DNA of 64,000 bases. Source: Coleofasciculus sp. B1-GNL1-01. GTDB lineage: Bacteria; Cyanobacteriota; Cyanobacteriia; Cyanobacteriales; Coleofasciculaceae. Position numbers: made by a program. Positions 43,901-49,900 of this stretch are shown here, piece by piece (position 1 is the stretch's first letter; each line of letters begins with the position of its first letter). Location: the NCBI GenBank assembly GCA_040220235.1, contig JAVJTO010000006.1; one strand, written 5' to 3'.

Positions 43901-46900
43901 ACTAAAAAAATTGCCCCCGGTATCAAATAAAAAAATAGCGAACAGCTATATTTTTAGTGGCACATCACCGAACCGAACTAAGCTGTTATGCATTTAAATT
44001 GGGTATTAGTAGCGAGCAAGATGCAAAGCCTGCGGCATGGCTTCGCTAAACGCACTACAAGGCTTTCACCCTTATTGACATTAAGGTTGAAATGCCGGAC
44101 AGCTTAAACCTAAAAAAGACCACTGTAAACCTGTTTCAAGGGAAACTATGATGAATCGTTCCTTTCAATCATCATTAGAAATTGAGCAACTCTACGGTAT
44201 TCCTGAACCAAATAAAAAACGTGAATTACAGCAGCGACTTGAACAGTTAAACCAAACTCAAACTTACTATCCCGCCGATTACTGTATTCATCAATTAATT
44301 GAACAAGCAGAGCGTCGCACACCAGACAAAATCGCGATTCGGTTTGACGGGCAAACCCTAACCTATCGGGAGTTGAACCGCCGCGCCAACCAGGTTGCCC
44401 ACTACTTACAAACGCTACAGGTTAAACCCGATGTACTGGTGGGGATATGTCTAGAGCGATCGCTCGATATGATCGTGGGTTTATTGGGGATTCTCAAAGC
44501 TGGAGGTGCTTATGTTCCCCTTGATCCCGCCTATCCTCAAGAACGATTAGCCCTGATGATTGAGGATTCCCAAGTCCCTGTCATCGTCACCGAACAAGAC
44601 CAACTGATAAGATTACCCGACACCCAAGCCCAAGTGGTTTGCTTAGATAGCGATCGACAGACCATTACCCAACATAGTTCAGAGAATTTAGACAGTGGTG
44701 TCACGCCTGACAACTTAGCCTACACCATCTATACCTCCGGCTCAACCGGGAAACCCAAAGGCGTCCAAGTGCTGCATCGTGGGGTGGTCAATTTCCTCAC
44801 CTCAATGAGTATCGCCCCTGGACTTACTCCAAAAGACACCCTGCTGGCTGTCACCACCATCTGCTTCGACATTGCCGCATTGGAACTGTATTTACCCTTA
44901 ATCGTTGGTGCTGATATTGTCTTAGTCACGCGAGATGTCGCCGCTGATGCAACTCAGTTAATCCCGGTTTTGCAAGAATCCGGGGCTACCGTCATGCAAG
45001 CCACCCCCGCCACTTGGCGGATGTTATTAGCCGCAGGTTGGCAGGGAAATCCCCAGCTTAAAATTCTTTGTGGGGGGGAACCCATGTCCCGCGAATTGGC
45101 GCGTCAACTCTTAGAACGCAGTGCTTCCCTGTGGAATATGTACGGACCGACGGAAACCACGATCTGGTCAGCCGTGCATCAGGTAGAATCGGCGGACAAG
45201 ACTATTCCCATTGGTCGCCCCATTGCCAATACCCAAATATATCTGGCTCATTCTGAGCAAAATTCATCTGACCCGATTAAATTTGTCCCAGTAGAAGAAC
45301 CGGGAGAATTGCTGATTGGTGGGGTTGGTTTAGCACGAGGGTATCTTAACCGACCTGACTTAACTGATGAACGATTTATTCCCGATCCCTTTAGTTCAGA
45401 ACCGGGTGCCCGTCTCTATCGCACCGGAGACTTAGCCCGGTACTTACCCGATGGGACTCTGGAATGCTTAGGTCGCTTGGATCATCAGGTGAAAATTCGC
45501 GGCTTTCGGATTGAACTGGGTGAGATTGAATCCGCCCTCTATCAACATCCGGGTATCCGAGACGCGGTGGTTGTCGCCCGTGATGACAGTTCGGGCGAAA
45601 AGCGCTTAGTTGCCTATCTCGTCAGTGACTTAGACGTTGAAAATGTTCCCCTAGAAACAAAATGCTGGGTAGCGTGTGAGGGAAATCCAGAAATTGAATT
45701 AACCACCAGCAATTTCTCGGTCAATAGTATTCGGTTACTTCATGCTCCCGCCTCCTGGCGAAACGGTCAATCCTTGACGCTGCGTTGCCAGTTTCCTGGC
45801 GTTCCCGATGAACTTCAACTTACTGGAACCATCGCTACAAAAGCCCTGGAATGGGTAGATGTTTCCCTAGACACCACCTCCAGCCAACAGACATGTTTAC
45901 GTCAGAGTATCAAACACATTGCCCAAACCCAGGGATTAGCCGTTCATGACTTACGCCGCAAAGAACCCCGCACCCCGCTAACGATTAATTGTCTGGCGGA
46001 ATTAGAATCGGGTGAAAAAGTCCAGGTGATAACGCAAAATATTAGCCAAGAGGGAATTTGCTTAAAGGCAACAACGGCTAATCCCTGGCAAATCGATCAG
46101 CGCCTATTACTCCGATTACAATTACCCGGAGGTGAAACCCCGTTATGGTTGCAAGGTCATATTGTCTGGCAGTTTGAAGACTATGTTGGCGTCCAGTTTG
46201 ATACTACAACCAGCCAGAAGGCGAAACTCCATCGCAGCTTAGGCAATTTGCGGACAGAACCCCGTATTCCCCTCCAGATCAAGGGTCGGGCGGAATTTGA
46301 GTCGGGTCAACAAGTGGAAGTGATCACGCAAAACTTCAGCCGCAATGGGATTAGCTTAAAGGCGCTCACCCCGACATTTTGGCACAACAATCAACCTGTA
46401 CTTTTGCGGGTACAACTGCCAGGGGTGGACAATCCCTTGTGGCTGCAAGGCACTGTGGTTTGGCATGTTGAGGAAAACGCTGGGGTGATTTTTGAGACCA
46501 CACCCACCCAGCAGGAGCAAATCCATCAGAGTATTGAGCTGATCGTTAAAACTCAAGGATTATCGCTGGCGCAGTTGCGATCGTTCCTGAGTGATAAGCT
46601 ACCGACTTATATGGTGCCCTCAACCTTTGTGTTAGTAGATAGCCTGCCCCTAACACCCAACCGTAAAGTCGATCGCAAGGCGTTACCTGACCCCAACCAA
46701 GCGCAACAGGTGGCTCAGGATACCTTCGTCGCACCGCGCACACCTGTTGAACAGGAGTTAGCCCAAATCTGGGCAACTGTACTCGATGTTGAGCGTGTGG
46801 GTGTGTATGACAACTTCTTTGAACTAGGGGGACATTCGCTGCTGACAGCGCAACTGTTATCGCAGGTGCGAGAACAATTCCAGGTGGAGTTACCGTTGTT

Positions 46901-49900
46901 TGCTCTGTTTGAAGCGCCGACTGTAGCGGAACTGGCTCAAACGATTACCGCCAAGACTAACGCTGATCCGTCTCAACCGGAAGGGGATGGGACAACGGTG
47001 ACGGGTACAATCGCGGTCACGAATTTAGCCAACGATGCGGTTTTGGATGAGACGATTTATCCAGAAAAGCCCTATCGTCAGCCAGACACTGCACCGGAAA
47101 AGATTTTGATTACAGGCGCGTCAGGTTTTCTGGGAGCGTTTTTATTGCGGGAATTACTCCAGCATACGAATGCTACCGTCTATTGCTTAGTCCGTGCCAA
47201 AACGCTGGAGGCGGGTCAGCAAAAAATTGCCGCGAGTTTCAACCGCTATTTACTTTCATCAGATAAGTTGGAGTCGCGGGTTGTCCCGGTGTTGGGTGAT
47301 TTAGCTCAACCGAGGTTGGGACTATCAGAGTCGCAGTACGAAGCGTTAACTCGCGAGATTGACTGTATCTATCACAATGGGGCGTTTGTCAACTTAATTT
47401 ATCCCTACAGCGCCTTGCGATCGGCAAATGTCCTGGGAACTCAGGAAATTCTCAAATTAGCCAGTAAAACCAAGGTCAAACCCGTTCACTTTGTCTCAAC
47501 GCTGGATGTGTTTCAATCGCCGCGCTATGCTCAGATGTCGGTGATTTTAGAACAGGATAGCTTGGAATCAGGGGATGACCTGTCTGATGGTTATGCTCAA
47601 AGTAAATGGGTGGGTGAGAAGTTAGTTAAACAGGCACACGCACGGGGGATTCCGGCGTCGATTTACCGACCGGGTATGATTACCGGACATAGCCAAACCG
47701 GGGCGTCTCAACAGGGGGATCTAATTGACCGATTAATTAAAGGGTTGATTCAATTGGGAAGTGCGCCGGAGTTGGACTTAAATCTCAGTTTGACTCCTGT
47801 AGACTATGTGTCCCAAGCGATCGCCCATCTGTCCCAGCAACCGGATTTATTCGGTCAATCGTTTCACTTGGTTAGTCCGGAGATGGTATCCTTACAGCAA
47901 CTCGTGGACGAAATTCGGGCTATTGGTCATCCAATTGAATGGATGGATTATTCTACCTGGCAAGATAAGCTGGTTCAGGTTGCCAGTTCCCAGCCTGACA
48001 ATGCGTTGAGTCCATTGGTGTTCCTGTTTACTCAATGGGTTGGTGAAAGCCAACGCCCCTATCTGGAAACAGCGGCTTTAGTCTCTCAGGCGTTTGATTC
48101 CCAGAATACGTTAGCGGGTTTAGCCGGAACGAATATTGTCTGTCCGTCAGTTAATAGTCAGGTGATTCGGGCTTATCTGAACTATAACCAGTTGGTTTGA
48201 CATAATTGCTGGATAACGACCAGATCCCCGACTTCTTGAAGAAGTCGGGGATCTAATTATCGTATCTGCCAATTGAGTATAGGGCGACCCGATCTAATTG
48301 AGTGGATACAGGTGTTCATTGAGGCAAGCGGGTCGCCCCTACAGGGGGAATCTCAGATGTGTGTTTGATCTATACACACCATAAGCGCGATCGCGGAAAT
48401 CTTATCGTCTCGGAAAAACTTGACCTGCTTCAATTTGCAGACAACCAACGACCCTTATAATGGGTAAAAGAATGTAAAGAAGTAATAACGACAAGATTTA
48501 GGGACACTTACCTATTGTGTTTGTTCTTAGCGGCTACGAATATTTCCTAGGGTTCTTACTGGCAAGCAGTTTAGTCCCCGTCCTCGCACTAGCAGCCTCA
48601 AAGCTGCTGCGACCCAGCATCCGTGACCCCGAACGCCGGACGACCTACGAATCTGGCATGGAACCGATTGGGGGCGCTTGGATTCAGTTCAATATCCGGT
48701 ACTATATGTTTGCCCTGGTCTTTGTGATTTTCGATGTAGAGACCGTGTTTCTCTATCCCTGGGCAGTGGCATTCAATCAGCTAGGACTACTAGCGTTTAT
48801 CGAAGCACTCATCTTTATTGCAATTCTCGTCGTTGCCCTCGTTTACGCTTGGCGCAAAGGAGCTTTAGAATGGTCGTAAACTACCCCGTCCATGGTTAGG
48901 CATGGAAGAGGCTTTCCAAAAGCCTATGTTTACCAGCCTAAGTTCTGCCTTGAACTACGTTATGTCTAAGTGTTAAAGTTCGTACCTACAGATGCGTAGC
49001 TAGTCTGTAGCTCTACAACTCCAGCATTAAACAGGTTATAGGGAAAAGCCAGTGTGTTGGAGAAAGTACCGAGACATAACTTTGGCGAAGCTAACGTTAC
49101 CCCGACAGGGAGGGGCGCAAGCCCAATCAAACAACCCATATCCGTACAGGTTAAAAGCACGAGGAAAGTAACTACCCAGGCGACAGGCAAGGGCAATATG
49201 CCGAACGTCGGCGAGTAAATCCAAGGCGGTAGGGGTTTAGAGATTTTTGTACTTTACCTAGGAGGCGCGGCTTTCTAACTGCCCATACTATCTATGGATG
49301 AGGTATCCAGTCGCGAATATTTGGATGAATACAGATACAGCAAACGCGGCACCCCAAAAGCCGCAACCCAAAGAAAAAATTCTCAATCCCATCAGTCGTC
49401 CTCAGGTCACGCAAGACCTCTCAGAAAACGTCATTTTGACGACAGTAGACGACCTCTATAACTGGGCTAGGCTGTCCAGCCTGTGGCCCATGATGTATGG
49501 CACCGCCTGCTGTTTCATTGAATTTGCGGCGATGATTGGGTCTCGGTTCGACTTTGACCGATTCGGATTAGTGCCGCGTTCGAGTCCCCGACAAGCGGAT
49601 TTGATTATTACTGCTGGTACAATCACGATGAAAATGGCACCGGCGTTGGTGCGTCTGTATGAGCAAATGCCGGAACCCAAATATGCGATGGCAATGGGGG
49701 CTTGTACAATTACCGGGGGGATGTTCAGCGTCGATTCGACAACCGCCGTGCGGGGTGTGGATAAGTTGATTCCTGTGGATGTTTATATTCCTGGCTGTCC
49801 ACCTCGTCCCGAAGCAATTATGGATGCGATCGTTAAACTTCGTAAGAAGGTGGCAAATGAGTCTATCCAGGAACGGGCAACTCTGAGTCCAACCCACCGC

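Follow-up and report, generated by a model that had tools for sequence, protein, structure and literature searches.

The adenylation (A) domain of a stand-alone, NRPS-like enzyme from the mat-forming cyanobacterium Coleofasciculus sp. B1-GNL1-01 is interrupted by three PilZ-type modules, located within the A-sub lobe between core motifs A8 and A9. This PilZ-interrupted A domain is a real and apparently undescribed variant of the interrupted A domains, and a literature search at the level of titles and abstracts returned no publication on such domains. The PilZ fold is a receptor fold for c-di-GMP, with RxxxR and (D/N)xSxxG as the binding motifs, and its presence in the moving A-sub lobe suggests, from sequence and model, that the enzyme may be under direct control of this signal. 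Two further features are brought out here: a glycine-type pocket code, and a permease gene that is a conserved neighbour in three genera.

The gene was analysed within a 64,000-nucleotide stretch of contig JAVJTO010000006.1, referred to here as the window, and occupies 44148..48200 on the plus strand; these are window coordinates already and no offset is to be subtracted. It encodes 1350 aa in the order adenylation, carrier (T) and thioester reductase (R), and all of its parts described below share this strand. A first-pass annotation had given the same reading frame and the same A-T-R architecture, and both are borne out, the latter by the order of Pfam and NCBIfam domains. The A-core (residues 52-400, 44301..45347) matches Pfam AMP-binding (PF00501, 7.5e-89) and contains motifs A1-A6, and the adenylation profile TIGR01733 scores 458.5 bits against a cut-off of 317.4. 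The N-terminal half of the A-sub lobe (residues 401-496, 45348..45635) holds A7 (YRTGD), A8 (GRLDHQVKIRGFRIELGEIE, residues 442-461) and the strand RLVAYLV, and here Pfam finds only the first half of AMP-binding_C (459-496, profile positions 1-38 of 76). The C-terminal half (residues 798-850, 46539..46697) holds the helix LRSFLSDK, A9 (LPTYMVP, 818-824) and A10 (PNRKVDRKAL, 837-846), with the catalytic Lys840 and an arginine where glycine is usual; the earlier placement of A9 stands, and that of A10, at 836-845, was one residue off. The carrier domain (46752..46946; Pfam PP-binding, 869-933) has GGHSLL with Ser897. In the R domain (47100..48188; NAD_binding_4 at 988-1225, and TIGR01746 at 353.6 bits against a cut-off of 213.35) the Rossmann GxxGxxG is present as TGASGFLG (989-996) and YxxxK as YAQSK (1149-1153). 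The set of motifs A1-A10, carrier serine and reductase GxxGxxG and YxxxK is complete and the enzyme, judged from motifs and profiles, is catalytically intact.

The succession of A, T and R domains is that of the MxcG terminal T-R, the Lys2 alpha-aminoadipate reductase and the carboxylic acid reductases, from which the enzyme differs in its glycine-type pocket. Its best partial NCBIfam matches are to MxcG (798-1346) and Lys2 (789-1302), and the scores are so far under the equivalog cut-offs (660 against 2300 and 601 against 1030, respectively) that the gene belongs to none of the MxcG/Lys2-type families. We know of no PilZ insert in MxcG, Lys2 or carboxylic acid reductases.

By motif and Pfam positions the insert comprises ~305 residues (497-797; 317 if counted from where RLVAYLV ends up to LRSFL), rather than the ~350 estimated earlier, at a site that spans -1 to 13 residues in uninterrupted A domains of the hit proteins. 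PF07238 (PilZ) matches it in two stretches, the best at 603-696, with 98.2 bits against a gathering cut-off of 22.5 (3.8e-28), and no other Pfam family matches inside the insert at E<=0.1. Module 2 (residues 603-700, 45954..46247) has RRKEPR at 603-608 (R604-R608) and NISQEG at 631-636 (N631-G636), and module 3 (residues 701-797, 46248..46538) has LRTEPR at 701-706 (R702-R706) and NFSRNG at 729-734 (N729-G734), so that RxxxR and NxSxxG are intact and normally spaced in both. Module 1 (residues 497-602, 45636..45953) is degenerate, being without RxxxR and having NFSVNS in place of D/NxSxxG; Pfam finds nothing in it alone, even at E<=1, and it is recognised by its homology to module 3 (38% identity, E 3e-18). 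Between modules 2 and 3 identity is 54% in protein sequence (E 1e-36) and 73% over 113 nt of the DNA. The located motifs and the alignments agree with what had been proposed previously, namely a split between A8 and A9 and three PilZ-like modules of which two have both motifs.

The foreign modules thus separate A8 from A9 without loss of either half of the A domain. This is the a8-a9 type of interruption, in keeping with the earlier assignment of the site to known interrupted A domains, and the a8-a9 interrupted TioS A4aM4A4b (5wmm), which is among the fold matches, has the same loop-out from A-sub with both halves retained. Ketoreductases and oxidases are further known guests of interrupted A domains. 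The guests are described as methyltransferases by Lundy, Mori and Garneau-Tsodikova (2020, PMC8341866), where a guest is worded as the catalytic portion of another enzyme domain, and neither PilZ nor c-di-GMP occurs in the main text of that paper. Whereas these known guests are catalytic, the A domain here contains repeats of a receptor fold that is non-catalytic. Among the 12 Pfam families listed at E<=0.1 for the whole protein there is no methyltransferase, ketoreductase or oxidase guest, the sole weak KR match (986-1027) lying inside the R domain. To our knowledge, PilZ is a receptor fold with no known catalysis.

In an AlphaFold model of the insert-bearing A-sub region, a normal A-sub lobe is restored across the insert, and its two halves superpose as one domain on the canonical A-sub lobes of 9bfd_B (Z 12.3, 97 residues, rmsd 2.5) and 1amu_B (Z 12.0, VIA-align). 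The three modules are each modelled as strands followed by a helix. The PilZ fold, a six-stranded beta-barrel with a C-terminal helix, is found in modules 2 and 3 by comparison with solved PilZ domains (Z 13-15, rmsd 2.0-3.2, 99-110 residues), the listed alignment ranges covering these two modules; module 1 has a pLDDT of 82-90 across most of its length. Single modules align with PilZ domains of the BcsA, MapZ, YcgR, Alg44 and PA4608 types at Z 13-15 (VIA-align), including model residues 196-306 (the module 2 region) with MapZ (Z 14.1), 202-338 with YcgR-PilZ (Z 13.7), 203-305 with Alg44 (Z 13.6), and 302-404 (module 3) with the BcsA PilZ domain (Z 14.9, rmsd 2.0, 99 residues). The top Foldseek matches of the model are c-di-GMP receptors – PlzA (7mie, 3e-9), VCA0042, MotI, MrkH and YcgR – and modules 2 and 3 superpose on PilZ structures with bound c-di-GMP. 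Low-confidence model segments 193-208 and 299-306 correspond to residues 593-608 and 699-706, the RxxxR linkers, which is consistent with a loop that is ordered only upon ligand binding. With a pTM of 0.33, the model does not fix how the barrels are placed with respect to A-sub.

The receptors YcgR, PlzD/VCA0042, PP4397, MotI/DgrA, MrkH and PlzA are built from a motif-less barrel, an RxxxR linker and a canonical barrel, and the array here, with a matching order, is a candidate for this receptor type. Each of those receptors is a separate protein of ~220-250 aa whose targets are partners, whereas here three barrels with two candidate sites lie inside an enzyme domain. Modules 2 and 3 taken together align with MotI, MrkH, PP4397 and YcgR at Z 12-14 (VIA-align), with an rmsd of 7-14 Å in superposition on the two-domain receptors, and Pfam gives no match to the YcgR N-terminal family. 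In BcsA (4p00, 9fnn), an enzyme activated allosterically by c-di-GMP, PilZ is likewise covalently within the enzyme; there it comes after the glycosyltransferase domain, whose active site it gates, while here it is nested in the swinging ANL subdomain. Control of the A-sub lobe by c-di-GMP may reasonably be inferred from the motifs and the fold.

The insertion had been noted to recur in NRPS proteins of other cyanobacteria, and we find it in 21 of 401 genomes of a sample of the phylum (this genome counted), with 34 of the 35 matches within open frames of at least 1122 aa. Outside the Cyanobacteriota the design was found in one Chloroflexota MAG. Among 85 database representatives that match the insert, 65 carry it at the same site, between the A-sub halves of NRPS modules, and their A domains have many different substrate codes. 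Most relatives have one module, which keeps D/NxSxxG and lacks the first arginine of RxxxR, leaving a single one (PERVP). The complete RxxxR...D/NxSxxG pair is present in 1/35 single-module inserts and absent from 41/69 inserts overall, so c-di-GMP binding is not to be assumed family-wide, and the family as a whole may be independent of c-di-GMP, to judge from these sequences. Such counts would fit barrels that have lost c-di-GMP binding or never had it, and that act instead as a spacer in the structure or as a surface for protein contacts, in the manner of motif-less PilZ-fold adaptors; the degenerate module 1 points the same way, as do the change of the NxSxxG serine to glycine in two orthologues (P0009 and L093) and of the first arginine to histidine in a third (P0010). 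Against this, at least one complete pair is found in 24 of 31 two-module inserts, and modules 2 and 3 retain both motifs in the enzyme itself, in its Coleofasciculus orthologues and in P0008, as does the canonical module of L092. The motifs persist in orthologues in which these modules are only 41-63% identical, and we consider barrels without c-di-GMP binding an unlikely account of the enzyme studied here.

The distant orthologues P0008-P0010 have identities of 41-63% in the PilZ modules, 64-79% in the catalytic domains and 25-36% in the T-R linker. The PilZ modules therefore diverge faster than the catalytic domains, and their greater conservation relative to the linker argues that they are under constraint. 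The reading frame is open in orthologues from several genera, and in a ~92% identical relative the gene, including its PilZ part, is covered by contigs of three runs labelled as RNA, which may contain DNA; the indels in the PilZ part of these contigs all keep the frame. Together with the intact catalytic motifs and the complete A-sub lobe of the model, this makes it highly improbable that the insert is carried along as a passenger, neutral or in decay, or that it has inactivated the A domain and left the gene a relic.

The genome is one with c-di-GMP signalling, having 17 GGDEF matches; among 21 ORFs scanned in positions 34274-63954 of the window there are no GGDEF, EAL or HD-GYP genes. A PF07238 profile search finds PilZ only in the A-T-R reading frame (twice) and in one 876-aa GT2/cellulose-synthase/PilZ protein, in agreement with the first-pass annotation, in which a cellulose synthase was the only other PilZ protein.

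The pocket code of the A domain, read via motif anchors rather than from a structure, is D I L Q L G M I W with Lys840 as its tenth residue (DILQLGMIWK). In the PDB the pocket is best matched by 4zxh (AB3403) and 5u89 (a DhbF fragment), both glycine-activating. Passages of PMC12283262 give DILQLGMIWK as a glycine code, and as that of glycine A domains interrupted by a monooxygenase (MOX) domain; in these the guest, an oxidase, cleaves the glycine unit, whereas here it is PilZ, and the two are likened by code, not by interruption site. The A-T-R enzyme most likely activates glycine.

Upstream of the A-T-R gene is an APC permease (41839..43287, plus strand; Pfam), with the ethanolamine permeases as its best family. 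It scores 357.8 bits with TIGR00908, under the cut-off of 381.75 and 3.5 times higher than with the next family (101 bits), and by sequence is a close relative of the ethanolamine permease family, not a certified member. The permease lies directly upstream of the A-T-R gene in three genomes (G000, G002 and G095), an adjacency kept across three genera, and the neighbours in L092 and L093 are 65% and 63% identical to it. It is separated from the A-T-R gene by 860 nt and followed by a 12-bp hairpin, so that co-transcription of the two remains putative. No such permease was found in the DNA retrieved for the uninterrupted Gly-type A-T-R homologues L002, L007 and L013. In five genomes the permease has a homologue (50-54% identity) and no A-T-R gene lies within ~9 kb of it, and in two others a homologue is followed by an aldehyde dehydrogenase and a glutamine-synthetase-like gene (with an SDR also in L100), a gene set that, by its sequences, looks like an amine-catabolic one. 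The glycine code and the ethanolamine-permease-like upstream gene point to a glycine-derived C2 amine as the probable product.

A membrane permease next to the gene would also fit a c-di-GMP-bound PilZ array that localises or docks the enzyme – for instance at the membrane, at the permease or at the cellulose-synthase complex – with no gating of catalysis. YcgR, MotI and MapZ loaded with c-di-GMP work through partner binding (titles of structure entries show MapZ with CheR1), and the array is large and modelled as separate barrels with low inter-domain confidence. We nevertheless regard docking as improbable, since the insert is conserved within A-sub, and not at a terminus, in 65/85 representatives, which argues that the position in the mobile lobe matters, and no partner was found, the permease being the only conserved neighbour.

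We tentatively favour the reading in which an intact glycine A-T-R enzyme releases a C2 product reductively, the permease moves that product, and c-di-GMP switches the enzyme through the PilZ array. Glycine would be activated, loaded onto the carrier and reductively released as aminoacetaldehyde, or as ethanolamine after a second reduction, and the ethanolamine-permease-like neighbour would transport this product or a close relative. The three barrels loop out of A-sub, the mobile lobe, at a point between the post-A8 strand and the pre-A9 helix, and in this reading the two inter-barrel linkers, which bear RxxxR, face the NxSxxG of the next barrel, as in YcgR/PlzD/MotI-type receptors. Binding of c-di-GMP would clamp each linker to its barrel and compact the array, altering A-sub freedom or the carrier path during the adenylation/thiolation swing; the messenger would then act directly on the A-T-R enzyme, and its effect may be positive or negative. 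The broader proposal, that c-di-GMP directly gates the A domain and so couples a biofilm/motility messenger, within the enzyme, to release of a C2 amine handled by the Eat-type permease next to it, and that the same switch operates in >60 NRPS lineages of many different substrates, with whole assembly lines gated by a second messenger, is rather doubtful.

The control of natural-product assembly lines is regarded as mainly transcriptional. With a receptor for a global second messenger inside the one subdomain that has to rotate at each turnover, enzymes of this class would possess an on/off switch that works directly and post-translationally. The A-T-R enzyme is a practical test case, being small, with three domains, a predicted glycine substrate, two complete candidate sites and natural uninterrupted relatives, and binding and kinetics with and without c-di-GMP are measurable on one soluble protein. 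If the switch is real, a ligand-controlled module would become available for adenylation domain engineering, and an enzyme output would be added to cyanobacterial c-di-GMP signalling, represented in this genome by its GGDEF matches and two PilZ proteins.

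The A-T-R gene at 44148..48200 (+) is a single open frame of 1350 aa and encodes an intact enzyme. Pfam domains follow one another as AMP-binding (residues 52-400), the first half only of AMP-binding_C (459-496), two stretches of PilZ (E 3.8e-28), PP-binding (869-933), and NAD_binding_4 (988-1225), and the protein has the full set of ten A motifs, the serine of the carrier domain (in GGHSLL), and the GxxGxxG and YxxxK motifs of the reductase. It exceeds the NCBIfam cut-offs of TIGR01733 (amino-acid adenylation domain) and TIGR01746 (thioester-reductase domain), and falls far short of the cut-offs of all named equivalogs, MxcG, Lys2, and CAR among them. 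Metatranscriptome-labelled contigs from three runs cover the upstream permease gene (~97% identical) and the A-T-R gene (~92% identical), the latter through one contig of 2846 nt spanning 45405-48247, and in the PilZ part the contigs show only frame-keeping indels, namely +CAA and a +C/-1 pair three bases apart. Because libraries with this label can hold DNA, these contigs argue only faintly for expression and better for selection on the reading frame; that the gene is a relic is highly improbable.

The adenylation domain is interrupted between A8, ending at residue 461, and A9. The strand RLVAYLV ends at residue 492, the helix LRSFLSDK-LPTYMVP that includes A9 begins at 810, and A10 with Lys840 occupies 837-846. 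The insert measures ~305 residues – rather than the ~350 assigned to it in the first-pass annotation – compared with -1 to 13 residues at this site in the uninterrupted A domains of matched proteins. That annotation also described three PilZ-like modules, two of them with both motifs, and here the motif reading and the homology among modules agree with it. Module 1 (residues 497-602) has neither arginine of RxxxR and carries NFSVNS in place of the second motif; alone it has no Pfam match, and it is homologous to module 3 (38% identity, E 3e-18). Module 2 (603-700) has RRKEPR and NISQEG, and module 3 (701-797) has LRTEPR and NFSRNG. These two are 54% identical as protein (E 1e-36) and, because their DNA is still 73% identical across 113 nt, the copies being spaced 294 nt apart, they are attributed to tandem duplication.

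A PDB sequence search with the insert as a single sequence returned only chance uL4 matches (E 0.2), so a fold search was needed to link it to solved PilZ structures. An AlphaFold2 model of residues 401-860, built from 12 aligned sequences (mean pLDDT 67, pTM 0.33), has three units, each of strands and then a helix, with the lowest confidence exactly at both RxxxR linkers. The top Foldseek matches are the c-di-GMP receptors PlzA, VCA0042, MotI, MrkH, YcgR, BcsA, and Alg44, and 5wmm, a methyltransferase-interrupted A domain, is matched as well. With VIA-align, module 3 superimposes on the BcsA PilZ domain (Z 14.9, rmsd 2.0, 99 residues) and module 2 on MapZ, YcgR-PilZ, and Alg44 (Z 13.6-14.1); modules 2 and 3 together align with MotI, MrkH, PP4397, and YcgR at Z 12-14 but with rmsd 7-8. 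Both halves of A-sub, the mobile subdomain of the adenylation domain (model residues 45..451), fit ordinary A-sub lobes together (9bfd_B, Z 12.3; 1amu_B, Z 12.0; about 97-100 residues, rmsd 2.5-2.8), so that the A-sub lobe is whole in the model and the PilZ array loops out of it. The modelled architecture is a complete lobe plus three PilZ barrels, with the two canonical motif sites in the linkers as candidate c-di-GMP sites.

By analogy with YcgR-type receptors, c-di-GMP would clamp the RxxxR linkers and compact the PilZ array, and the compacted array would alter either the A-sub swing or carrier-domain traffic. The same candidate sites could instead serve c-di-GMP-dependent docking, which we consider unlikely. 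The residue preceding RxxxR reportedly affects binding of one c-di-GMP versus an intercalated dimer, as in the L135R substitution of VCA0042; entry 3kyg is among the Foldseek matches of the model. On this precedent, the stoichiometry of c-di-GMP could differ between module 2 (RRxxxR) and module 3 (LRxxxR). Signalling proteins of the same genome include 17 GGDEF matches, and the genome search found one other PilZ protein, BcsA-like, in line with an earlier report that cellulose synthase is the sole other one. Two adjoining large multi-PAS (and GAF) histidine kinases are encoded at 7867-11403 and 11413-14583 (+), of which the first is a hybrid that includes a receiver domain; no link of this pair to the PilZ-interrupted enzyme was seen.

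The interruption is not confined to this gene. A HMMER search with the insert against 1.84 billion representatives (E<=0.001) matched 85 proteins, onto which the A-T-R segments were mapped with phmmer: both A-sub halves flank the PilZ modules in 65, one flank only is present in 6, which are fragments, and 14 are short PilZ proteins without an A-sub flank. In the cyanobacterial sample, 21 of 401 genomes (13 of 156 genera; own genome included) match at E<=1e-5, with 34 of 35 matches held in open frames of at least 1122 aa. The first-pass claim that the same insertion recurs in NRPS of other cyanobacteria is thereby extended. Microcoleus, Oscillatoria princeps, and a Chloroflexota MAG supply the named members, each annotated as 'amino acid adenylation domain-containing protein' and nothing more; multi-module NRPS carrying the insert are found at L014 (Microcoleus) and L062. 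A contig profile search with the full-length alignment was set aside, as A-core patterns drove it to generic Gly-type A domains, with PilZ modules at 2 of 79 loci (L014 and L062).

By length, the 68 complete inserts group at 103-116 aa (n=35), 145 aa (n=1), 203-253 aa (n=31), and 304 aa (n=1, P0012), and phmmer counts one module in 39, two in 26, and three in 3. Among 69 inserts, including that of the enzyme described here, D/NxSxxG is present in 66, and full RxxxR...D/NxSxxG pairs number none in 41, one in 25, and two in 3. Single-module inserts open with L.PER.P, with one arginine, and only 1 of 35 has a full pair; of the 31 two-module inserts, 24 hold one or more (second module 15, first module 11, both 2). 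The inserts with no full pair would suit a structural role for PilZ barrels without ligand, which seems improbable for this enzyme, whose distant orthologues keep the canonical motifs except for Ser-to-Gly (P0009, L093) and Arg-to-His (P0010). These A-T-R orthologues have three modules in P0008 and two in P0009, P0010, and the loci L092 (genome G002) and L093 (genome G095). P0008-P0010 are 41-63% identical to our protein in the PilZ modules, 64-79% in the catalytic domains, and 25-36% in the T-R linker; in close orthologues named Coleofasciculus the insert is 82-96% identical.

P0018 (1855-2337) and P0027 (632-1114) each have, behind a single A-core, two tandem copies of the complete unit in which A-sub halves enclose PilZ. 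There are also free-standing proteins of ~320-330 aa, made up of two PilZ modules between the final ~40 residues of the N-terminal half of A-sub and its C-terminal half (L096 6155-7144 (+), L098 7854-8846 (+), L097 7848-8843, and L088 1183-1881; also P0015, P0033, P0065, and P0068), without an A-core, carrier, or NRPS neighbour. Those of L096 and L098 share a housekeeping context of NFACT, guanylate kinase, and a Rce1-like protease. Such proteins may have donated the NRPS insert or may derive from it.

With motifs A4, A5, and A10 as anchors and a MAFFT alignment as cross-check, the substrate pocket reads DILQLGMIW+K. In the PDB, the pocket segment is best matched by 4zxh (AB3403) and 5u89 (a DhbF fragment), both of which we take to be glycine-activating. 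The exact string is a glycine code in monooxygenase-interrupted Gly domains, according to PMC12283262. Across 48 PilZ-interrupted A-cores there are 41 different pocket codes for many substrates, with Gly-type in just 5, so substrate-linked insertion was rejected: it is the A-sub lobe, and not a substrate, that the insert accompanies.

There are no further NRPS genes near the A-T-R gene, which is followed by ndhC, ndhK, and ndhJ and preceded by an APC permease gene (41839..43287 (+)), a GNAT, and a HisKA protein. A same-strand permease is kept directly upstream in two other genomes, 65% identical in G002 and 63% identical in G095, where a further paralogue and a 319-aa ORF intervene. The best NCBIfam family of the permease is ethanolamine permease (357.8 bits, just below the cut-off of 381.75; runner-up family 101 bits). 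It is rare, with matches in 11 of 401 genomes at E<=1e-60 and at least 50% identity in 8; PilZ-A-T-R adjoins it in 3 of these and is absent within ~9 kb in the remaining 5. In two of these 5, at L099 (8227-12627) and L100 (8411-13625), homologues with 51-54% identity precede an aldehyde dehydrogenase and a glutamine-synthetase-like gene, plus an SDR in L100 only, which looks like an amine-catabolic set using a gamma-glutamylation route for small amines. The Gly pocket and the ethanolamine-type carrier, two independent predictions, together point, tentatively and at somewhat less than even odds, to a C2 amine. A metagenome search with the insert alignment gave 5 loci and no gain on permease synteny, the close orthologue L094 having just 524 nt upstream. 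A four-PAS protein encoded two genes downstream of PilZ-A-T-R in G095 (L093 13871-15802 (-)) weakly matches a diguanylate-cyclase sensor domain; a GGDEF domain was not seen in this ORF.

Rfam gave 0 matches (E<=1) over 40400-48600, which speaks against a riboswitch or another RNA element ahead of the A-T-R gene, in the spacer that follows the permease gene, and promoter and terminator scans gave the same counts as shuffles (12 vs 11.4; 8 vs 8.9). The 860-nt spacer contains a 12-bp hairpin at 43375-43402 (+), 88 nt past the permease stop, and a 70-aa ORF (43616-43828) that matches no family. Immediately past the A-T-R stop codon, at 48222-48254, there is a perfect palindrome (GATCCCCGACTTCTTGAAGAAGTCGGGGATC), and 120 nt ahead of the start, at 43979-44024, a second short element. 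The two are not repeats of each other, and resemble dispersed repeats of cyanobacteria on either side of the gene: in all four sequencing runs – which consist of contigs, so that depth, transcript ends, and strand are not readable – their summed contig depth is very high, and many contigs continue into unlike sequence. Joints such as 44002->48222 were discounted, their sides being just 25 letters and sited on a dispersed repeat; every share in the runs was <=0.24.

In titles and abstracts, with subscription journals and supplements outside the coverage, we found no paper describing PilZ inside an A domain; two candidates were set aside, their wording being 'c-di-AMP-binding'. Neither PilZ nor c-di-GMP occurs in the main text of Lundy et al. 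(PMC8341866), who categorised interrupted A domains. Three aspects of this locus are new: a minimal A-T-R enzyme bears three modules, its pocket has the glycine code, and the Eat-type permease is conserved. Insert-free Gly-type A-T-R enzymes are encoded at L002 (Kamptonema) and at L007 and L013 (Microcoleus), and others, at L033 9872-14329 (Myxacorys almedinensis) and L031 5342-14323, have ~430 residues without a PilZ match at the a8-a9 site, presumably a methyltransferase. One enzyme type thus exists in three natural versions: uninterrupted, otherwise-interrupted, and PilZ-interrupted.
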